A stretch of DNA of 28,435 nt from a virus (Duplodnaviria; Caudoviricetes), in the IMG/VR virus record IMGVR_UViG_3300008110_000430, positions 1-28,435 of that record. One strand, 5' to 3'. The notes below the pieces were generated by a model, which ran no database searches, had not been told where the DNA came from, and saw only the letters and a program-made list of their open reading frames with translations. Made by a program: the position numbers and the translations under genes. This document shows positions 3,224 through 27,735 of this stretch, in pieces (the stretch's first letter is position 1; every line of letters starts with the position of its first letter).

Positions 3224-3303
3224 GTATGAAGGAGGCAGCCTTCTATATGAACATACTCACTTCCCTGATGGGTGCGGAACTGCCTTTCCAATCCCTTCAG
3301 GGA
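3224..3303 (+). ncRNA. Putative structured 5' leader with a kissing-loop pair
   Basis: Hairpin GAAGG-AGGCAG-CCTTC, and long stem TCCCTGATGGG/CCCTTCAGGGA enclosing GGAA-CTGCCT-TTCC; the two 6-nt loops are exact reverse complements. Confidence 0.6.
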
Positions 3304-3313
3304 TTTTAAATTT

Positions 3314-3985
3314 ATGGCAAAAGATCCTGCAGTATTATTTTATACAAGTGATTTTCTTAGCGGTACATTCTCAATGACTAATGATGAGGTAGGTATGTAC
3401 ATTAGATTACTATGTTTACAACATCAAAAAGGTAAGCTAACAGAAAAGGATATGCTAAGCATATGTAAAGCATATGTACAAGATGTATATGAAAAATTTG
3501 ATTTAATAGATGGTCATTATGTAAATAAGAGAATGCATGATGAATCAGAAAAGAGGTCAAATTATACAAATTCGAGGAGAAATAATGCAAAAACTAAGCA
3601 TATGCCTGAGCATATGCAACAGCATATGCCTAAGCATATGGAAAATGAAAATGAAAATACAAATGAAAATATAAATAGAAATAAAAAGAATGTAAAACCT
3701 ACAATTTCAGAAGTTGAAGATTACTTTCTTGAAAAAGGAAGTACAGTTGAAAAAGCAAAACAAGCATTTGAATATTATGAAACTGCTAATTGGCATGATT
3801 CAAAAGGTAAGCCTGTAAAAAATTGGAAACAAAAAATGTTGGCGGTTTGGATTAATAACTCTAATTTTAACAATAACTTTAAATCACCTAAAACGAAAAT
3901 TGAGAAATATGCAGAATGGTATAACAAACTCACAGCTAATCTCAGCAGCGAAAAAGACAACGAGGTTAGCGGATTCATCAACTGA
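3314..3985 (+). CDS. Phage replication initiator (YdaU/DUF1376-like N-terminus)
   Basis: MAKDPAVLFYTSDFLSGT...GMYIRLLCLQHQKG; low-complexity middle; PTISEVEDYF...FEYYETANW...VKNWK C-terminal domain; internal repeats. Confidence 0.7.
   Translation: MAKDPAVLFYTSDFLSGTFSMTNDEVGMYIRLLCLQHQKGKLTEKDMLSICKAYVQDVYEKFDLIDGHYVNKRMHDESEKRSNYTNSRRNNAKTKHMPEHMQQHMPKHMENENENTNENINRNKKNVKPTISEVEDYFLEKGSTVEKAKQAFEYYETANWHDSKGKPVKNWKQKMLAVWINNSNFNNNFKSPKTKIEKYAEWYNKLTANLSSEKDNEVSGFIN
3458..3688 (+). repeat. Iteron-like repeats plus A-rich tract (putative origin)
   Basis: AGCATATG at 3458, 3469, 3597, 3609, 3621, 3633, then GAAAAT-type repeats from 3641. Confidence 0.7.
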
Positions 3986-5594: not shown

Positions 5595-5790
5595 ACATAT
5601 TTATAAACTCTATCTTGATCCAAACTTTGTTTTGACTAAATGGTGCAGCAGTTGCGTTATGGATATGCTCAAAAGACTATATAGTTATTATCTAAGTTTG
5701 CCACAGGAGCAGGTTCAAGATTTGCCAATTGTACAATCTGATGTACAGGAAGTTATACAACCTAAAAAGAAAGGCAGACCAAAGAAATGA
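5485..5790 (+). CDS. Hypothetical protein, start uncertain
   Basis: WCSSC motif and KKKGRPKK tail; stop coupled to the next ATG; no upstream ATG. Confidence 0.6.
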   Translation: MLKYIDLINLEEHIGNFHTVQNGYVRNLDIQLLNMYEHIYKLYLDPNFVLTKWCSSCVMDMLKRLYSYYLSLPQEQVQDLPIVQSDVQEVIQPKKKGRPKK

Positions 5791-6779
5791 GAATACTTGC
5801 AATAACCTCAAAGTTTTCAGGTGTAGGATATCACAGAATCATGCTGCCTTTGGTGCATATGCAGAAAGATTATTGTTTGGTAACTGACACACTAAGTGAG
5901 GAAATAGTTAGTCAGGGATTTGATATATTCGTTATGAATAGGTTCTTGGCTGATATAAGTATTCAGCAGATAATTGATTGGCGAAATAAATATGGTTTTA
6001 AATTAGTGGTTGACAATGATGATTATTGGCAACTTGATCCAACTCATATACTATACAATAGATACGAGGCAAATAATATAACTGATAAAATAATACAATA
6101 CATAAAGATTGCAGACCTATGTACCTGTACACATGAAAGACTTGCAGATGGTATTTATCAATACAATCAGAATGTAGAAATTTTGCCCAATGCTTTACCA
6201 TATGGAGAGGAGCAGTTTCTTGATAATAAAATCGAATCTGATAAACTTAGGTTGTTCTGGTCAGGATCAGGAACACATGAAAAGGATTTAAAGATCATTA
6301 AAGAACCTGTAAAGAGATTAATTGGTGATAATGTAAAAATGGTCATTGCAGGTTATAATGAAAGCGAAGGCGAAGTCTGGAATAATATGTACTATTATTT
6401 CTCAGCAGGTAGGAAACTTGACACTCACATTTACAGATATGCACCAATTGAGAGATATATGGCTGCCTATGCAGATTCTGACGTTAGTTTGATTCCTTTG
6501 GTTGAGTCAAAGTTTAACGGAATGAAAAGCAATCTAAAGGTTTTGGAAACTGCAGCAAAGAAAAATCCTGCTATAGTATCTGATGTTGATCCTTATAAAA
6601 ACCTGCCTGTCTTATACGTTAAAAAACAATCTGATTGGTATAAGCATATAAAGAATTTGTTAAACGATCCACAGATGCGAGTGGAGTTAGGGCAGCAGCT
6701 TTTTGAATACTGCCAAAAGAATTACAATTTCAAAGAGATAAATATTAAAAGAAACAGCATTTATAGTAAACTGATCTAA
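5787..6779 (+). CDS. GT-B fold glycosyltransferase (GT4-like)
   Basis: MRILAI N-terminus, VVDNDDYW, LPNALP, DVSLIPL...KSNLKVLE...PAIVSDV. Confidence 0.8.
   Translation: MRILAITSKFSGVGYHRIMLPLVHMQKDYCLVTDTLSEEIVSQGFDIFVMNRFLADISIQQIIDWRNKYGFKLVVDNDDYWQLDPTHILYNRYEANNITDKIIQYIKIADLCTCTHERLADGIYQYNQNVEILPNALPYGEEQFLDNKIESDKLRLFWSGSGTHEKDLKIIKEPVKRLIGDNVKMVIAGYNESEGEVWNNMYYYFSAGRKLDTHIYRYAPIERYMAAYADSDVSLIPLVESKFNGMKSNLKVLETAAKKNPAIVSDVDPYKNLPVLYVKKQSDWYKHIKNLLNDPQMRVELGQQLFEYCQKNYNFKEINIKRNSIYSKLI
6737..6765 (+). promoter_or_regulatory. Putative phage late promoter
   Basis: GATAAAT-N14-CATTTATA, same geometry as 14931, 20542 and 25523. Confidence 0.6.
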
Positions 6780-18895: not shown

Positions 18896-20538
18896 TGGCT
18901 GAACAATTAAATTTAAATATAAATGTTGGCGGTAATGCCACAGAGAGTGTAGGAAGTTTAAAAAAACAATTGCGAGATGCAACTGCACAGGTAGCTTTAT
19001 TATCTGAAAAATTTGGAGCAACATCTGTAGAGGCAGCAGCAGCAGCAAAGAGAGCAGCAGAATTAAGAGATAGGATTGGAGATGCTCAGTTGTTGACTCA
19101 GGCATTTAACCCAGATCAAAAGTTTAAAGCATTAGCAAATGCACTTTCTGGTGTTGCAGGTGGATTTTCTGCAGTACAGGGTGCAATCGGTTTATTTGGT
19201 ATTGAATCAAAAGAGGTTGAGCAGCAATTGTTAAAGGTTCAATCTGCTCTTGCATTATCACAGGGGCTCAATGCAATAGGTGATAGCATAGATGCATTTA
19301 AAGCACTCAAAACTCAAATAGTTGTTGAGGTTATTCCTGCTATAAAAGCACTCGGAACTGCTGCACAGGTTGGTATCGGTTTACTTATTACTGCTGTTGT
19401 TGGTGCTATTGTTGCATGGAAAGAATATATAGATACACAGGAGCAGGTACAAAAAGCGACAGAGGAAACAAATAAAGCAATTGAGAAAGGATCAAAAGCA
19501 CAATTAGAAGGTGAATTAGCCTTTATTGATAGAGAATCCAGATTGCAGATTGCAAGATTAAAAAACACAAAGAATAATGAACAGGCAATATTTGAAGAAG
19601 AGCAGTCAGCAAGAAGAAGTCGAATAAGATCATTGGAAAGATTTTATGATGAACAAAAAAATAAAGATGGTGAGGCTGCTCAAAAAGCATTAAATGACAT
19701 TAAAAATTTACAGACTGAAATACAGATTGCTGAGATTAATCATCAGGGTAAATTAATTGAAATAAAAGAGGCTGCTGCATTAAAAGAAAAAGAAAGACTC
19801 AAAAAACTTGAGGATGAAAGAAGAGAAGCACAAAGCAGAATGATGGCTCTTGAACTTCAAGCAATAGAAAATAGAAGTAAGGCAGCAAAAGATCAGGCTA
19901 TTGCTGATGATGAATATCTTGCAAATCAATTTGCAAAAGAAGAGGAATTGCAGGGTAAAAAAATTGAATCAACAAATCAAAGAGTACTAAGAGAGAAAAA
20001 GGCTGCAGAAGATTTAAAAGAGGCAGAAAAGGGATTATATGAGGCAAGATGGGCATTTGCAGGTGCAACAGTACAATTATTTGCATCATTGGCAGGACAA
20101 AATGAAAAGGCAGCAAATGCATTCTTTATACTTGACAAGGCTCTTGCAATTGGTAAGGTTGTAGTTGATACACAAAGAGAAATAGCAGGTTATTTGGCGA
20201 ATCCTTTTTGGAGTGCTTTGCCTGATGGAGGTGCTACAATAAAATCGGCAAATATTGCTGCTGCTAAATTTAGAGCAGCTACAAGCATTGCAACAATTGG
20301 AGCATTATCAATTGCGAAATTTAAAAATGGTTCAACCTCAGGATTTGGAGGAAGTACAGGAACTTTGGGAGTTGCACCATTAGTCCCACAATTGCCAACT
20401 GCAAACTTGACTGCATTGAATCAGGACACAATCAATGCTCTTGGGAATCAGGCAATTAGAGCATATGTTATTGAAACTGATATGACTACAAATCAACAAA
20501 GAATACAGGCAATTAGACAAAGAGCAAGATTTGGTTAA
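18895..20538 (+). CDS. Tape-measure-like protein
   Basis: Ala/Glu/Lys-rich helical sequence with hydrophobic stretch GIGLLITAVVGAIVAW. Confidence 0.7.
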   Translation: MAEQLNLNINVGGNATESVGSLKKQLRDATAQVALLSEKFGATSVEAAAAAKRAAELRDRIGDAQLLTQAFNPDQKFKALANALSGVAGGFSAVQGAIGLFGIESKEVEQQLLKVQSALALSQGLNAIGDSIDAFKALKTQIVVEVIPAIKALGTAAQVGIGLLITAVVGAIVAWKEYIDTQEQVQKATEETNKAIEKGSKAQLEGELAFIDRESRLQIARLKNTKNNEQAIFEEEQSARRSRIRSLERFYDEQKNKDGEAAQKALNDIKNLQTEIQIAEINHQGKLIEIKEAAALKEKERLKKLEDERREAQSRMMALELQAIENRSKAAKDQAIADDEYLANQFAKEEELQGKKIESTNQRVLREKKAAEDLKEAEKGLYEARWAFAGATVQLFASLAGQNEKAANAFFILDKALAIGKVVVDTQREIAGYLANPFWSALPDGGATIKSANIAAAKFRAATSIATIGALSIAKFKNGSTSGFGGSTGTLGVAPLVPQLPTANLTALNQDTINALGNQAIRAYVIETDMTTNQQRIQAIRQRARFG

Positions 20539-20541
20539 GCA

Positions 20542-20570
20542 GTTAAATTTAAAAATTACTTACATTTATA
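20542..20570 (+). promoter_or_regulatory. Putative phage late promoter
   Basis: GTTAAAT-N14-CATTTATA, 3 nt before ATG 20574. Confidence 0.6.
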
Positions 20571-20573
20571 GAT

Positions 20574-22028
20574 ATGAATTTACCAATATTTGAATTAATG
20601 ATCAATGAGGACATCAATGATGATGCAGAGGTAAACTTTGTGGCATTAGTTGACAGACCTGCGATCCAAAAAAATTGGAATGCATTTAAAGAAAAATATA
20701 AATTTGAAATTGTATCTGAGGACAAGCGAATTATTTCTGGTGCTCTCATGTTGGCTGACACTCCAATTTTTAGGAGTGATGCTACTCATGGTGATTACTA
20801 TGTTATGTTTAGCAAGGACACTATTTTCAAAATTGCTCAGAAGTTTTTCAAAAAAGGCTATCAGGCAAATGTAAATCTAATGCATGATCCATCACAGAAA
20901 GTTGATGGAGTTGTTATGTTCGAGAGTTTTATATCTGATAAAGATAGGGGCATATTGCCAATGAAGGGTTTTGAAGATTCCCCAGATGGTTCATGGTTTG
21001 GTAGTTTTAAGGTTGAAGATGATGCAACTTGGGAAAAAGTTAAAAATGGTGATGTCAGAGGTTTTTCTGTTGAGGGAATTTTCGAATATGGAAAGGCTCA
21101 AAAGAAAAGCAAGGAAGAGGAAATGATGGAAATGATTTACAGGATTCTGGAGGAGGTTGAAATGGGCGGTGAAGGTAGTGGATGCAAGGGTGATAATTGT
21201 GGTAGACCTAAAGGAAGCGGAAGCGGTACAGAAGGTGGAGCACCAAAAGTAAATTATTCTGATCCAAAGATTTTAAAAGAATCAGTTGATAAAATATTGT
21301 CTGAGCCTCCTAAATATGGAACTCAGGAAATATTTTCTAAAGATGGAGTTTACACAGATGAAAGACAGGGTTTACATAAAGAGGTTATTAATGATTATTT
21401 AAAGAATGGTAGTACAAATACAGGTACTTCGTATTTCATGGGCGGTGCTCCTGCAACAGGTAAAAGTTCAATCATAAATTCAGGGGATGTGACTTTGCCT
21501 CAGGGGATTATGGTTGTTGATGCAGATGCTATTAAAGCTAAAATCCCAGAATACGGAGAGATGATCAACAGGGGTGAAGGTCAAGCTGCAGCAAGAGTAC
21601 ATGAAGAGAGTTCAACATTATCAAAAGCAATAACTGCAACTGCTGCAAAAAGAGGTTATGATATCGTAAACGATGGAGTTGGAGATGGTAAATATGAATC
21701 TATAGTAAAAAAGGTTGAAGAGCAGAGAGAAGCAGGAAAAAGAGTTGTAGCGAATTATGTAACTACAGATACTGAAACATCTTTACAAAGAGCAAGACAA
21801 AGAGGAGAAAGAACAGGGAGAGTTGTACCTGAGGAATATATAAAAAGTATGCACAGGGAAATTTCAAACTTAGTGCCTAAGTTGGCTCAAAATAAAGTAT
21901 TTGATGAACTAAGACTTTACGATAATAACGGATCAAAACCGAAATTAATATTTGAACAAAAAGGCGATAAAATCACAATACATGATCAGACCGCCTATAA
22001 AAAGTTTTTAGCAAAACAGAAAGGTTAA
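20574..22028 (+). CDS. XkdF-like prohead serine protease fused to a zeta-toxin-like P-loop kinase
   Basis: N-terminal ALVDRPAI, NLMH, PDGSWF, GFSVEG; linker GGEGSGCKGDNCGRPKGSGS; C-terminal GGAPATGKS, VVDADAIK..IPEY, GYDIVNDG, SLQRARQR..RTGRVVPEEYI, FDELRLYDN. Confidence 0.85.
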   Translation: MNLPIFELMINEDINDDAEVNFVALVDRPAIQKNWNAFKEKYKFEIVSEDKRIISGALMLADTPIFRSDATHGDYYVMFSKDTIFKIAQKFFKKGYQANVNLMHDPSQKVDGVVMFESFISDKDRGILPMKGFEDSPDGSWFGSFKVEDDATWEKVKNGDVRGFSVEGIFEYGKAQKKSKEEEMMEMIYRILEEVEMGGEGSGCKGDNCGRPKGSGSGTEGGAPKVNYSDPKILKESVDKILSEPPKYGTQEIFSKDGVYTDERQGLHKEVINDYLKNGSTNTGTSYFMGGAPATGKSSIINSGDVTLPQGIMVVDADAIKAKIPEYGEMINRGEGQAAARVHEESSTLSKAITATAAKRGYDIVNDGVGDGKYESIVKKVEEQREAGKRVVANYVTTDTETSLQRARQRGERTGRVVPEEYIKSMHREISNLVPKLAQNKVFDELRLYDNNGSKPKLIFEQKGDKITIHDQTAYKKFLAKQKG

Positions 22029-22205
22029 TTACATCTGTGGTATGTCAACCACTTTGCCAGACTTCATCAGTTCTTGAATCTCTTTGAGAAGTTGAATCTC
22101 TGATTCGTTTTGAGGCTCAGCACCACCAATGAGTTCAAGAACCCTTTTTTCTGATTCTGAGATGTTGCTTGAAACTTTGCCATCGTATACTATATCTTCT
22201 TTCAT
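22029..22205 (-). CDS. Small acidic protein, candidate antitoxin/immunity protein
   Basis: 58 aa MKEDIVYDGKVSSNISESEKRVLELIGGAEPQNESEIQLLKEIQELMKSGKVVDIPQM; stop abuts the toxin-fusion stop; not in ORF track. Confidence 0.6.
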   Translation of the reverse strand: MKEDIVYDGKVSSNISESEKRVLELIGGAEPQNESEIQLLKEIQELMKSGKVVDIPQM

Positions 22206-22221
22206 ATTTGTAATTTACAAT

Positions 22222-22250
22222 AATAAATGCAGTTTTCAAAATCTTTTATC
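22222..22250 (-). promoter_or_regulatory. Putative late promoter for the 58-aa ORF
   Basis: Minus strand reads GATAAAA-N14-CATTTATT, same spacing as the other copies. Confidence 0.5.
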
Positions 22251-22836
22251 AGGCATACCAACTGCAGTAATTTTCTTCACCTTCTTTGTGTTTCATCAGA
22301 GAACCGACAACATCACCCATTGAAATGTGATAACTTATCTCTCCATTCCAACCCACACTTGGCACAATTCTTTTCACAAAAGGCTCACCACAGAAACCAT
22401 TGATCTCTGGTTTAAATAACCCAGAAGCCCATGAACTTTCACTCACCATAACTTTTCCGATCTTTCTCAGGATGGCTGATTTACCTTTGAAACCAACAAT
22501 CTGATAGTATCTCAAGTTAGTTTGTTCATAACCCCAACTTTCGTAGAGCACCTGTCCGACATAGAACCCATGCTCAAAACTTTGGGCAGCCTCTTTTTTC
22601 TTTCTCTTCATTTCCTCTCTTCTCTCCTGAATCTTCTCAAGGTTGGAAACGTAACTCTCAAGATAACTGATCATGTTTTCCTGATTTCTGAACCTGTAGT
22701 AAAACTCAGGTTTTTTGAATCTTGCTTTGCTGACAATCTTTTCAGCTTTAGCGAGGAACTGTCTTGAACCCTCAATCCTTTCCTCAAGAACCAGAGAGAG
22801 GTTTTGTTTTTCGAATCTTTCAATTAACTGTTTCAT
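22249..22836 (-). CDS. Early protein with SWGYEQTN motif, function unknown
   Basis: VGQVLYESWGYEQTNLRYYQIV; own early promoter and leader motif. Confidence 0.85.
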   Translation of the reverse strand: MKQLIERFEKQNLSLVLEERIEGSRQFLAKAEKIVSKARFKKPEFYYRFRNQENMISYLESYVSNLEKIQERREEMKRKKKEAAQSFEHGFYVGQVLYESWGYEQTNLRYYQIVGFKGKSAILRKIGKVMVSESSWASGLFKPEINGFCGEPFVKRIVPSVGWNGEISYHISMGDVVGSLMKHKEGEENYCSWYA

Positions 22837-22890
22837 AATAAGTGGTTTTAATTACAGATCAAATATATAAACTTTTCTTTAATTTCCAAA
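22837..22890 (-). promoter_or_regulatory. Early promoter plus leader motif
   Basis: Minus strand TTTG-N19-TATATTTG...AAAACCACTTATT-ATG. Confidence 0.8.
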
Positions 22891-22908
22891 ATATTTTTGT
22901 GGTTTTTT

Positions 22909-23088
22909 TTAATATTCTTTTGGTGAATTTAATATCTGAGAAACAATCTCAAAAACACTTGGCACTCTTTCTAACTCATCTAATTCATCTGATAATTGAT
23001 TCCATAAATCACCATTTGGAAAGTTGTTTTCAACTTCAAAATTCATTTGTTCTTTGAGTTCTTTAACTCTGTTTTCTTTGTTATTCAT
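22909..23088 (-). CDS. Small acidic early protein (59 aa)
   Basis: MNNKENRVKELKEQMNFEVENNFPNGDLWNQLSDELDELERVPSVFEIVSQILNSPKEY, preceded by AAAACCACTAAT; not in ORF track. Confidence 0.7.
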   Translation of the reverse strand: MNNKENRVKELKEQMNFEVENNFPNGDLWNQLSDELDELERVPSVFEIVSQILNSPKEY

Positions 23089-23089
23089 A

Positions 23090-23188
23090 TTAGTGGTTTT
23101 TATAATATCTCTTTTGGTAATACTTCCTGTTATCTAAGTGAAAGAGAGAAGCACCGATCAAAGCGAGGAAAAAACAAACGTAAATCAT
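23090..23188 (-). CDS. Small membrane peptide (32 aa)
   Basis: MIYVCFFLALIGASLFHLDNRKYYQKRYYKNH, directly downstream of an early promoter. Confidence 0.5.
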   Translation of the reverse strand: MIYVCFFLALIGASLFHLDNRKYYQKRYYKNH

Positions 23189-23205
23189 AATCTCAAATTG
23201 TACAG

Positions 23206-23237
23206 TAAAGATATAAACTAAAGTTTATAATTCCAAA
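23206..23237 (-). promoter_or_regulatory. Early promoter
   Basis: Minus strand TTTG-N20-TATCTTTA. Confidence 0.65.
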
Positions 23238-23344
23238 TATTTATAAAGTTTTTTTTAAAATATTATTGTAACAATGTTGCAAAAAAGAATAATTAAACTT
23301 TAAGTGATAAATAGTCAATGTTTTACGGATTTAAAATAAAATGT

Positions 23345-23929
23345 ATGAACGCAAAAGAAGCAATCATGAAAATTAGGGCACTCTTTGAAGAGGCGTCCAA
23401 TATTCAGGAGGCTCAAGTTGAAGAGGCAAAACAAGAGTTTGCTGAATATCAACTTGCTGATGGCACTAAGGTTATGATCTCATCACTCGAAATTGGCGGT
23501 GAGGTTAAACTCGAAGATGGCTCATTCGCTCCTGATGGTGATCATCAACTTGCTGATGGCTCACAAATCTCTGTTTTAGGTGGTAAGATTACTGAAATCG
23601 AAGCTGCAGAAAAACCAGAGGCTGATATGCCAGAGGTAGAAGTTGAAGCAAAGAAAGACAAAAAAATGGAGGAAATGGCTGCAGAATTTGCTGCAAAAAT
23701 TTCTGAGATGAACGGATTAATTGAAGCCTTGAATGAAAAAATATCTTCTATTGAAGATAAATCAAAGCAAGGTTTTTCTCAGGTAGTTGATTTGATTGAA
23801 GAGGTAACTAAAATGCCTCAGGCTGATCCAATTGAAAAGCCACAATCTTTCAAATTTGAAGCTACAAAAGACATTAAGTTCGAAAGACTTAATAAATACA
23901 GACACGCAATTTTAAACTCTAAAAACTAA
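23345..23929 (+). CDS. Capsid scaffolding protein (putative)
   Basis: Acidic, coiled-coil, repeated xQLADG motifs, directly upstream of the capsid gene; ATG 23345. Confidence 0.7.
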   Translation: MNAKEAIMKIRALFEEASNIQEAQVEEAKQEFAEYQLADGTKVMISSLEIGGEVKLEDGSFAPDGDHQLADGSQISVLGGKITEIEAAEKPEADMPEVEVEAKKDKKMEEMAAEFAAKISEMNGLIEALNEKISSIEDKSKQGFSQVVDLIEEVTKMPQADPIEKPQSFKFEATKDIKFERLNKYRHAILNSKN

Positions 23930-23935
23930 AACAAA

Positions 23936-24889
23936 ATGGCATTTAACGTTTCTGCATTAGCAGATTACACAGAACAAAACGAAGCACTTTTGGTTACATC
24001 ATCTGTGCTTGGTGCTAAAACTGCATCTTTAATTAAGAGTGCAGGTAACGTGATGGTAGGTGTTAAATCATCTGAAACCATCAATATTATGGATACTGAT
24101 GCAATTTTCCAAAGCGGTGCATCTTGCGGATTTACTGCATCTGGTTCAACAACTTTCACACAAAGAACTGTGACTGTTGGAAAAATTAAAGTAAACGAGG
24201 CTCTTTGTCCAAAAGACCTTGAGGCTAAGTACTTGCAAAAAGCATTGCCTACAGGTTCAATGTATGACAGCATTCCATTCGAACAAGAGTTTTCTGAAAA
24301 GAAAGCTAAGAGAATTGCTGCTCAACTTGAAACTGCTCTTTGGCAAGGTGATACTGATTCAGTTAACGTAAACCTCAACAAATTTGATGGTTTGGTTAAA
24401 TTGATCGGTGCTGCATCTGGTGTTGTTGCTGCGAATGCATCAACTTACATTTCTGGTGCTCCTTTGTCAAGCATTACTGCTGCTAACGTAATCAGCATTT
24501 TTGATGGTGTTTACAAAGCAATCCCTGCTCAAGTTGTTGCTGCTGATGATATGACTATCTTCTGCGGTCAAGATTTGTTCAGAACTTACACAGTTGCATT
24601 GAAAGATGCTAACCAATTCCACTACTCAATTGATGTTAAAGCTGACAGCGAATTTATCCTGCCAGGTACAACTATCAAAGTGGTTGCGGTTGCAGGTTTG
24701 AATGGTACAAACAAAGTTTACGCAATGAGATTGAGTAACTTGTTTATCGGAACTGATCTTTTGAACGAAGAGGAAAAATTTGAAATCTTCTACGCAAAAG
24801 AAGCTGATCAGGTTCGTTTCGTATCTGAGTTCAAAATGGGTGTGAACATTGCATTCCCTGATGAAGTTGTGAAGTTCATCCTTGCATAA
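23936..24889 (+). CDS. Major capsid protein
   Basis: 317 aa; KIKVNEALCPKDL, ETALWQGD, KFDGLVK, NLFIGTDL; follows scaffold and precedes a terminator. Confidence 0.85.
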   Translation: MAFNVSALADYTEQNEALLVTSSVLGAKTASLIKSAGNVMVGVKSSETINIMDTDAIFQSGASCGFTASGSTTFTQRTVTVGKIKVNEALCPKDLEAKYLQKALPTGSMYDSIPFEQEFSEKKAKRIAAQLETALWQGDTDSVNVNLNKFDGLVKLIGAASGVVAANASTYISGAPLSSITAANVISIFDGVYKAIPAQVVAADDMTIFCGQDLFRTYTVALKDANQFHYSIDVKADSEFILPGTTIKVVAVAGLNGTNKVYAMRLSNLFIGTDLLNEEEKFEIFYAKEADQVRFVSEFKMGVNIAFPDEVVKFILA

Positions 24890-25930: not shown

Positions 25931-27735
25931 TAAGTAATCAGAACATAGGAAACTACGTTTTAGTACAATTTGCAGAGGCTAAACAACCTGAATACAGGGA
26001 AAAGAAAGGTGAAGGTTATATGCAGTATGGGGATAGAAATGATTATCCAACATATCTGGTAGAACTTTTTAATAAGTCTGCAAAACACAATGCAATTGTA
26101 AGAAATAAAGTTCACTACATTATCGGAAACGGATGGGTAGGAAGTGAGCAAAGTCAACCTTTCATTGATAGCCCAAACAGGAGTGAAAGTCTGGATGATC
26201 TTTCCAGAAAGGTTAGCTTAGATATTGAGTTATTTGGAGGTGCATACTTAGAGGTAATCTGGGGAATCGGAAAGGTTTCTGAGATTTGGCATTGTGATTA
26301 TACTAAGTTCAGAACAAATAAAGATAATACTCAATTCTGGTATAAGGAAGATTGGAAAGATACTAAAGAGAAATATGAGGTTTATCCTGCTTTTAATCCT
26401 AAGAACCCACAGGGAAAACAAATACTTTATTTAAAGGAATACAGACCTAATGGAGGTGTTTATTCCCTGCCTTCTTACTTTGGTGCTCTGAACTATATTG
26501 AGTCTGATATTGAGGTTTCTAAGCACGTTTTAGGCAATGCCAAAACAGGATTCTCTGCGAGTAAATTGATTACTCTTCCTAATGGTGAACCTTCACCTGA
26601 GGAGCAGAGAGTTGTACACAATAAGTTTAAGAACACTTATACAGGTGCTGATGGTATAAAATATATGTTAGCCTTTGTAAATGATGCATCCAGAAAACCA
26701 ATAGTTGATGACTTAGGGCAGTCTGATTTGACAAAAGAGGACTTTGGCAGAGTTGATGAATTGATCCAGACTAACATATTTAGCGGTCATCAGGTTACAA
26801 CTCCATCAATTTTCGGTATTGCAGTTGCAGGTAAGTTAGGAACAAGAACTGAAATGAGGGATGGATATGAGATTTTCAAAAATACTTACGTTAATGGTAA
26901 GCAAATGTTTTTGGAGGCTGCATTTAATATGTTATCAGGTTATGCAGGATACCCAGAAGATTTGAAAATCTTAGCAACTGAACCTGTTGGAATTGAGTTC
27001 AGCGAGTCAACCATTTTGCAAGTTGCTCCGAAAGAATGGATCATTGAGAAACTTGGTATTGACATGAGTAAATATCAGCAACCTGAGCAACCTGTTGAGC
27101 AGCCTGCACAAAATTTTGCTGATCAGTTTCAGGTGTTTTTCGAATTTGGTCAAGATAAAAGCGAATTTAATATCTGGAAAACCAAACATCTTTTTGGTGA
27201 TGTTGAGTTGTTTGCTGATGTAACGCAATTACAATCTAATGTTTTGGATTTAATTGCTAAGGACAAAAGAATAACTCCAGAAGTTATTGCAGATACATTA
27301 AAAGAAGATGTAGGATCAATTAAAAGAGTAATAGATTCACTCGAAAAAAATGGGTTTTTAAATATTAAAGAGTCTGTTATTGGAGAGGGTATTGATTCAA
27401 ATGTAGTTATAGAAAGAACATTAACTGCTCCTATTTCTGAGATAGTACAAAAGATAAAACCTGCAACAACTGAGTTTCTGATTAGGTATTCATATGAATG
27501 GAAAAAGGGAATCCCAACAAATCAAAAAGATACAATTAATCATCCCTCAAGAGAGTTTTGTAAATATCTAATGGAGGCAAATAAAATGTATTCCAGAAGT
27601 GAGATTGAACAAATGAGTGCAAGATTAGGATATTCTGTTTGGGATAGAAGGGGAGGTTGGTGGACTCAGCCTAATGGCAGTCATTCACCATCTTGCAGAC
27701 ATGAATGGGTTTCTAACATTGTAACAAGAAAATAA
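25927..27735 (+). CDS. Portal protein with C-terminal winged-helix and MuF-like Cys/His extension
   Basis: YGDRNDYP..L..LFNKSAKHNAIV, YSLPSYFGALNYIE, IFSGHQVTTPSIFGI; extension begins after a QP-rich linker. Confidence 0.8.
   Translation: MISNQNIGNYVLVQFAEAKQPEYREKKGEGYMQYGDRNDYPTYLVELFNKSAKHNAIVRNKVHYIIGNGWVGSEQSQPFIDSPNRSESLDDLSRKVSLDIELFGGAYLEVIWGIGKVSEIWHCDYTKFRTNKDNTQFWYKEDWKDTKEKYEVYPAFNPKNPQGKQILYLKEYRPNGGVYSLPSYFGALNYIESDIEVSKHVLGNAKTGFSASKLITLPNGEPSPEEQRVVHNKFKNTYTGADGIKYMLAFVNDASRKPIVDDLGQSDLTKEDFGRVDELIQTNIFSGHQVTTPSIFGIAVAGKLGTRTEMRDGYEIFKNTYVNGKQMFLEAAFNMLSGYAGYPEDLKILATEPVGIEFSESTILQVAPKEWIIEKLGIDMSKYQQPEQPVEQPAQNFADQFQVFFEFGQDKSEFNIWKTKHLFGDVELFADVTQLQSNVLDLIAKDKRITPEVIADTLKEDVGSIKRVIDSLEKNGFLNIKESVIGEGIDSNVVIERTLTAPISEIVQKIKPATTEFLIRYSYEWKKGIPTNQKDTINHPSREFCKYLMEANKMYSRSEIEQMSARLGYSVWDRRGGWWTQPNGSHSPSCRHEWVSNIVTRK

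Follow-up and report, generated by a model that had tools for sequence, protein, structure and literature searches.

A phage prohead protease with an exchangeable zeta-fold kinase tail and a convergently encoded predicted inhibitor

The analysed stretch of DNA (28,435 nucleotides of a Caudoviricetes virus record, hereafter the window) encodes a prohead protease whose C-terminal tail, here a zeta-fold kinase, is an exchangeable cassette that has been swapped repeatedly among related small freshwater phages, each tail type occurring with its own partner genes except in a single locus. According to the explanation we favor, with a probability of roughly 0.58, the protease carries the kinase, which faces a convergently encoded predicted blocker, into the prohead, where the kinase would be freed for later delivery into the next host. 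By analogy, the protease is likely a new kind of carrier packing a toxin into the virus particle, and such a protease-borne version would widen this toxin class beyond the MuF proteins and beyond temperate phages, integrase not having been found in the phages considered here. For the MuF-type toxins both the function and the travel in the virion are described as open in PMC10083569.

The fusion gene and its place in the head module

Protease and kinase occupied a single open frame of 484 codons on the + strand (20574-22028, no internal stops; Table 1), as the original prediction had read from the sequence, and the motifs quoted there were all present, including the Walker A motif GGAPATGKS (aa 290-298, nt 21441-21467). 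Both parts gave the anticipated Pfam families above cut-off: Peptidase_S78_2 (PF14550) at aa 47-169 (E 9.8e-16, 58.3 bits against a cut-off of 24) and Zeta_toxin (PF06414) at aa 282-453 (E 9.2e-29, 100.7 bits against 22.3). In the predicted model both domains were folded and the linker was of low confidence (pLDDT <50 at 187-223), with the N-terminal part giving a middling match to the fold of the T4 gp21 protease (Z 7.9, rmsd 3.3, 117 residues aligned).

Table 1. Features of the cassette and of the adjoining head genes (window coordinates)
Feature	Position	Strand	Remarks
Prohead protease domain (XkdF/Peptidase_S78_2), aa 1-197	20574..21164	+	PF14550; head maturation protease PHROGs 3017, 34096; T4 gp21 fold
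GGxGSG leader and Gly/Ser linker after Met197	21165..21240	+	common to all cargo types; low pLDDT
Zeta-fold P-loop kinase cargo, HEES subfamily	21241..22028	+	PF06414; K297, D318, H343-E344-E345, D367, R406, R410, R416, H427
58-aa predicted inhibitor (immunity protein) of the kinase	22029..22205	-	convergent, abuts kinase stop codon
195-aa protein, phrog_37844	22249..22836	-	constant cassette part with either cargo
TTTG-N19-TAnnTTTG promoter-like site	22860..22890	-	ahead of the 195-aa and 58-aa genes
59-aa ORF, variable slot of the opposite-strand block	22909..23088	-	homologues in 7 examined loci
32-aa hydrophobic ORF, first of the opposite-strand block	23090..23188	-	putative gene; read in the identical L001, also in L002 and L035
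TAAGTGATAA element	23301..23310	+	right edge of inserted block; single occurrence in window
Scaffold-like gene	23342-23929	+	label by position and size
Major-capsid-like gene	23936-24889	+	phrog_1623 virion structural protein; capsid label by position and size

An assembly artefact, named at the outset as a possible refutation, was rejected, since full-length fusions covering 99-100% of the query and carrying both Pfam domains recurred in at least 56 relatives (among the 120 listed of 1199 matches) and contigs of two runs from different studies crossed the junction without gaps (X1, 20847-23496; X2, 20401-22892). Locus L001, being 100% identical to the window, was not counted as independent. 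The runs compared were pond, lake and freshwater metagenomes. One fusion (P0056) was present in public databases under an automatic name, and a search of 50,697 phage records yielded no cultured member, the best match having 39% identity. In the RNA run X15 short contigs covered the protease, kinase, 58-aa and 195-aa genes, with strand and level absent and DNA carry-over possible.

His104 and Ser165, which we take by analogy to be the catalytic residues, were invariant across 22 aligned fusions, and the GFS[VI]EG motif was present in 119 of the 121 proteins of the homologue listing. By its profile, its His/Ser motifs and its position in the head module the N-terminal domain is an XkdF/Peptidase_S78_2 prohead protease, with predicted activity. 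The fusion gene was located between a tape-measure-like ORF and the scaffold-like and capsid-like ORFs, with the portal further on (position-based labels); terminase and endolysin genes were also present in the window.

An exchangeable cassette with paired partner genes

A survey of homologous proteases for variable C-termini, suggested at the outset, revealed kinase, RelA/SpoT-like, ART and HExxH tails or none. The listing comprised 121 proteins (120 matches listed of 1199), 119 of them with the protease, and the tails of the latter were 63 kinases, 51 RelA/SpoT-like domains, 3 unassigned, 1 HExxH and 1 ART, the RelA label resting on PF04607 matches of P0060, P0080, P0084 and L032, mostly below cut-off (none for P0088). 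Seeing only proteins of 266-847 aa, this search is silent on the frequency of tail-less forms. When viral sequences were scanned with nothing but the protease, 80 loci were recovered, 76 of them tail-less, in which the protease was followed directly by the scaffold-like gene and this by the capsid-like gene, many of the capsid-like proteins being 93-99% identical to that of the window; with the kinase as the only query, 3 loci were recovered. The kinase, RelA-like and tail-less forms represent natural three-way alleles in near-identical backgrounds: the protease cores of P0060 and of the window (P0001) were 99.5% identical and had the same linker, but P0060 ended in a RelA-like tail. A further type of cargo, about 150 aa long, without Pfam match and ART-like by eye only, was seen in P0076, P0078, P0081, L164 and L170.

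On the tree of protease cores (109 sequences, 132 before duplicate removal; the truncated or protease-less P0057-59, P0067-69, P0073 and P0104 were left out) the kinase label needed 16 changes, and strongly supported branches forced at least 14 of these. In run X7, one contig followed the window to 21240 and resumed at 22253, with 1324 other bases in place of this exact interval, so that the kinase and the 58-aa gene had been replaced as one unit, the swap point lying at about 21240. The protease tail is an exchangeable cassette that has been repeatedly swapped, and it is dispensable, being absent from 82 tail-less loci and from five near-complete genomes; in 5/5 of these genomes the kinase, the 58-aa and the 195-aa protein remained unmatched, part of the searches having been run without positive control.

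A cargo-blind scan for the junction pattern recovered 42 viral loci, i.e., 16 with the kinase, 24 with a complete RelA-like arrangement, L083, which ends inside the gene, and the HExxH locus L103. Apart from L103, which had no partner gene between tail and scaffold and none of the cassette partners, each tail type was strictly paired with its own partner genes: a convergent ORF of 56-58 aa accompanied the kinase (16/16 kinase loci, none of the 24 complete RelA loci, none of the 82 tail-less ones), and a co-directional 72-aa ORF together with a convergent HD hydrolase accompanied the RelA-like tail (24/24, against 0/82 tail-less). An ORF of 191-195 aa was common to all 40 complete kinase or RelA loci and occurred in 0/82 tail-less loci. 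The pairing profiles were built from the same loci and the loci are related, so the counts test presence and exclusivity, not independent prediction, and do not represent independent events. A + strand ORF at 22129-22323 was also considered as the immunity gene and rejected, occurring only in near-identical loci.

The hydrolase of the RelA variant matched HD_4, and a homologue of the 72-aa family in L163 gave a weak match to Tis1_ImmP (E 0.016). With its small ORF and HD hydrolase the RelA variant repeats the layout of MuF-Apk2, where a Tis1-like inhibitor and the hydrolase Aph1 come after the toxin (PMC10083569, PMC12226406). In L163 (2153-6586) a RelA-like cargo with the 72-aa-family ORF, HD hydrolase and a 195-aa homologue was found on an unrelated carrier of 835 aa, which adjoins a glucosaminidase-domain protein and is possibly an ejection protein.

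In the opposite-strand block of the window, the slot taken by the 59-aa ORF held different small ORFs in other loci. Two looser promoter-like matches (23237-23206 and 22240-22210, TTTG-N19/20-TAnnTTTG-like) accompanied the site in Table 1, whose consensus is presumably that of the Bacteroidota housekeeping promoter; the signal was weak, with 4 matches in the window against 1.54 expected and 6 of 100 shuffles equally high, and a scan for sigma-70 promoters and terminators stayed at chance level. The TAAGTGATAA element was present in 39/39 cassette loci and in 9 of 13 tail-less loci examined, and was located at the 3' end of the protease in the tail-less relatives.

The 58-aa protein had 142 relatives, with 15 invariant columns in 12 sequences, no matches in Pfam, NCBIfam or PHROG and no usable match in the ESM Atlas, where the 195-aa protein matched unnamed viral clusters only; it represents a candidate new inhibitor family. 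Complex prediction with the kinase (aa 226-484) scored 0.74, against 0.00 for the best of 3 controls; 116 of 157 solved complexes and 2 of 215 mismatched pairs attained this mark (a rough guide, own alignments having been used). The prediction runs had at least 87% of contacts in common, with a partner pLDDT of at least 79. The predicted interface (aa 343-348, 350-352, 368-373 and 415-422, i.e., the HEES helix, the 368-373 loop and the 415-422 stretch) aligned with the acceptor site of zeta, and the 58-aa protein is accordingly predicted to plug the acceptor-substrate cleft of the kinase. This differs from epsilon, which blocks the ATP site (PMC3062530) and to which the 58-aa protein is unrelated by Pfam, even though a solved epsilon/zeta complex exists. 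Furthermore, epsilon and zeta are operonic, whereas here the partner is downstream and convergent and the kinase is fused to the protease; the upstream gene is the tape-measure-like ORF of 547 aa, not a co-transcribed epsilon or PezA. The common properties with epsilon/zeta and PezAT (PF06414; 1gvn, 2p5t) are the fold, the Walker A Lys, the catalytic Asp and a small neighboring partner gene.

The kinase subfamily and its probable substrate

The residues listed for the HEES subfamily in Table 1 were invariant in 64/64 aligned domains. In a fold search independent of Foldseek the kinase was closest to AvrRxo1 (Z 19.4, rmsd 3.0, 231 residues aligned), followed by zeta (18.5) and PezT (17.6), while Foldseek placed zeta first, and zeta was also the best match by sequence. 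AvrRxo1, a 3'-NAD kinase, resembles the tail in its fold, in having an inhibitor partner (AvrRxo2) and in lacking the UDP-GlcNAc motif; it is, however, a type III effector and not a phage protein, and sequence comparison with an E limit of 1 did not match it. Two alignments with S. pyogenes zeta gave the same ungapped register at an identity below 20%, in which K46, D67 and E116 of zeta correspond to K297, D318 and D367, all invariant in the 64 domains, and the tail enzyme is therefore probably active. The initial assignment as a zeta-like kinase was thus upheld by the PF06414 profile, the P-loop Lys, the catalytic Asp and the fold.

The same did not apply to its substrate. PMC3062530 names five residues with which S. 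pyogenes zeta contacts UDP-GlcNAc, and in this low-identity sequence alignment the catalytic Asp was the sole one retained: T118 was replaced by V369 (63 V and 1 I of 64), R120 by D371 and E100 by K351 (both 64/64), and T128 fell into a variable K/E/D/A/S column (379). A Thr-to-Val change at the equivalent of T118 gives a non-toxic PezT, according to that paper. The invariant H343-E344-E345 stands in place of the TPY of zeta, which, together with the four differing contacts, sets the subfamily apart from epsilon/zeta and PezAT; the HEES kinase of PSS2 keeps the Thr.

The original prediction had the kinase phosphorylate UDP-GlcNAc and block MurA, with a weakened wall aiding lysis or DNA entry, and we now consider this quite unlikely. 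Its strengths are the PF06414 match, the top rank of zeta by sequence and in Foldseek and the conserved catalytic Lys and Asp; moreover, such a role was proposed for MuF-zeta fusions in PMC5512222, and ng_zeta1 uses other residues to bind UDP-sugars, which it holds in a flipped pose (PMC5923241), so that the missing streptococcal contacts do not decide the matter. Nevertheless, the positions of these contacts hold V369, D371, K351 and a variable column, and AvrRxo1, tied with zeta in fold and equally devoid of the contacts, phosphorylates NAD (PMC5087710). The tail is also swapped with enzymes without a wall role, and an M15 endolysin is separately encoded in the window, both of which argue against wall weakening. 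In addition, the subfamily is present in HVTV-1, a virus of Haloarcula, whose cells have no peptidoglycan. The contact residues, the fold tie with AvrRxo1 and the haloarchaeal virus make UDP-GlcNAc doubtful, and the substrate of the HEES subfamily probably differs from the cell-wall precursor used by the textbook zeta. There is close to an even chance that it is an adenine dinucleotide or nucleotide, NAD-like as for AvrRxo1; some other compound is less probable, and a UDP-sugar a little less probable again. Of the idea that the maturation protease serves as an effector carrier, the variable C-terminal domains and the MuF-like behavior were supported, but the UDP-GlcNAc and wall role of the cargo was not.

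The HEES subfamily also included the MuF minor head protein of PSS2 (39%), HVTV-1 gp115 (with an ART) and a protein of Bacteroides phage DAC16, in which the kinase stands alone, so that a carrier is dispensable for the subfamily; the same kinase (61%) was carried by P0104, a Bxa-type MuF-like protein. The role of these viral zetas is called unknown in PMC4284463. No homologue of the 58-aa protein was found near the kinases of PSS2, DAC16 or HVTV-1.

It is very unlikely that the kinase is a non-toxic counter-defense or helper enzyme, modifying for example an immune signal or nucleic-acid ends, with the 58-aa protein as its regulator or chaperone. Polynucleotide kinases were next in the fold ranking (Z 14.3 and below), virion-borne polyvalent proteins have been proposed to counter host immunity (PMC5512222) and homologues of the 58-aa protein adjoin restriction systems in other loci (see below), all of which would suit a helper, but a regulator or chaperone agrees poorly with a partner predicted to fill the acceptor cleft, and the RelA tail with which it is interchangeable is arranged like a toxin that has been tested and that has two immunity proteins.

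Release, delivery and orphan inhibitors

The GGxGSG leaders were preceded by F, L or M in 114/114 cases (121 listed proteins; background 12%; the sequences are related). Six proteins had an RDxxGR[FW] leader starting after F, M or Y, and P0104 had neither leader. In L164 and L170 the N-terminal part of the protease enclosed both leader and cargo, an F preceding the leader and an F-rich sequence following the cargo, which is consistent with excision by cleavage. This leader context is suggestive of cleavage C-terminal to a large hydrophobic residue, freeing a cargo that begins with the leader, and supplies Met197 as the predicted cleavage site. Prohead proteases often degrade themselves and nearby proteins, and the cargo might therefore not survive in the virion. 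Among related observations, P0073 (323 aa) combined an RDxxGRW leader after F with the HEES kinase and had no protease, suggesting a stand-alone internal head cargo, and L036-L080, L103 and P0058 had an insert of about 100 aa in the N-terminal part of the protease, with F residues at its bounds, resulting in proteases of 298 aa.

In the favored mechanism the kinase would enter the prohead on the protease and be released there by a cut after the F, L or M residue preceding the GGxGSG leader. The opposite-strand block would be expressed early from host-type promoters; with the partner genes behind promoter-like sites, the inhibitor could precede the late head genes and would keep the late-made kinase silent in the producing cell. 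After ejection the kinase would act briefly, before fresh inhibitor is made, and may phosphorylate a cytoplasmic nucleotide metabolite, thereby aiding host takeover.

Kinase and 58-aa protein could also form a toxin-inhibitor module that works inside the producing or carrier cell, for addiction, competitor exclusion or timing of late infection, and is never injected, the protease merely lending a late expression slot. The strict pairing and the predicted binding suit any toxin-antitoxin use, opposite strands permit separate timing and the DAC16 kinase is not fused to anything, yet we regard this as unlikely: the cargo was repeatedly found in frame on head or virion proteins (the protease, MuF, HVTV-1 gp115) C-terminal to a conserved leader, the 5/5 complete genomes devoid of integrase and resolvase give no evident sign of a long carrier state, and the bacterial orphan inhibitors described below make more sense with a kinase that enters cells without the cassette.

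Judged from its sequence, the cassette mirrors the MuF polymorphic toxins and differs in the carrier domain. Both combine a constant head protein with a variable C-terminal enzyme (RelA-like, ART, metallopeptidase; PMC5576092, PMC3482391, PMC11699363), and both have adjacent small partner genes in the head module, as in Apk2 with Tis1/IapK and Aph1 or Bxa with Bsi and BAH. In contrast to the MuF toxins, the carrier here is an XkdF protease with a PF14550 N-terminus and no MuF domain, and the kinase partner and the HD hydrolase are on the opposite strand. The MuF toxins were described from temperate phages, whereas tyrosine integrase (PF00589) and resolvase (PF00239) were absent from 5/5 complete genomes of the relatives here; a plasmid-like state or an unusual lysogeny is possible, and no prophage copy was found in a first genome scan with alignment A6. 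PF04233 was also absent from 5/5 genomes, but it misses the Bxa-type MuF of P0104 as well, so a MuF protein may still be present. The portal protein had a conserved C-terminal extension (window 27373-27735) with invariant R-F-C and C-R-H-x-W motifs; as a hidden MuF this Cys/His extension gave no Pfam and no informative PHROG match and an hhalign probability of 1.3% against the PSS2 MuF, near the controls (single-sequence templates).

Fusions of zeta-like kinases to MuF were already noted in PMC5512222, and the word zeta does not occur in the main text of PMC5576092. Polyvalent proteins, such as the PSS2 minor head protein and HVTV-1 gp115, likewise have the HEES kinase on head-associated multidomain proteins (PMC5512222), but here there is a single cargo, a protease carrier and dedicated partner genes, and XkdF has no occurrence in the main text of that paper. 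A prohead protease of the XkdF type as toxin carrier was not found in the openly available main texts searched, including passages of PMC7824862 and PMC9424270; such fusions may be contained in the architecture lists of PMC5512222.

Homologues of the 58-aa protein were also detected at 11 metagenome loci (8/64 parts of the collection scanned) and at two genome loci. One, L138, was a phage cassette; for the remaining 12 the fetched DNA, which in L132 and L140 ends at or just after the gene and in L134 amounts to 1.3 kb, showed no kinase. Seven of the 10 metagenome orphans were close to defense genes, i.e., type I/III restriction, McrBC or GmrSD in L129, L131, L132, L133, L135 and L137, and a PD-(D/E)XK nuclease in L130; L140 was also near such genes judging by its ORF list, and L136, L139 and L141 not clearly so. 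In L129, L132, L133 and L140 the homologue was located directly 3' of an HD hydrolase. The two genome-locus orphans belonged to MAGs of Sediminibacterium sp. and Chitinophaga pinensis, which, together with the fold match to the XkdF protein of a Nonlabens phage, points to Bacteroidota hosts.

The orphans are a first hint that bacterial defense islands may store antidotes to virion enzymes. In an extended version of the favored explanation, which is tentative and on balance somewhat unlikely, lytic freshwater phages would employ their maturation protease to load, free and inject a swappable enzyme, in the present case a zeta-fold kinase acting on a new nucleotide substrate, and their Bacteroidota hosts would keep captured inhibitors as antidotes in defense islands, often beside an alarmone-hydrolase-like gene. 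If true, this would be anti-phage defense by orphan immunity proteins against virion-delivered toxins, of which no description was found in the literature searched. It is equally possible that the orphans protect against other toxins of the zeta type or that they are remnants. A viral scan with the orphan P0174 gave one match, L125, which was spurious.

A recurring array of small genes was observed around the orphans in L129 (4240-5899), L130, L131 and L133, consisting of the orphan, the HD hydrolase, a basic small lipoprotein-like ORF and an NT5C-type phosphatase (PF06941), which, speculatively, might reverse a nucleotide phosphorylation. Elsewhere in the window a glycosyltransferase (phrog_7162, 5787-6779), a methyltransferase (PF13489, 9408-9938) and, side by side, an ORF with the DnaA C-terminal helix-turn-helix (PF08299, 2781-3206) and a DUF1376 replication-type protein (3272-3985) were present. 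Beyond the window, G001 continued with tail-fibre-like and small ORFs, as judged by eye.
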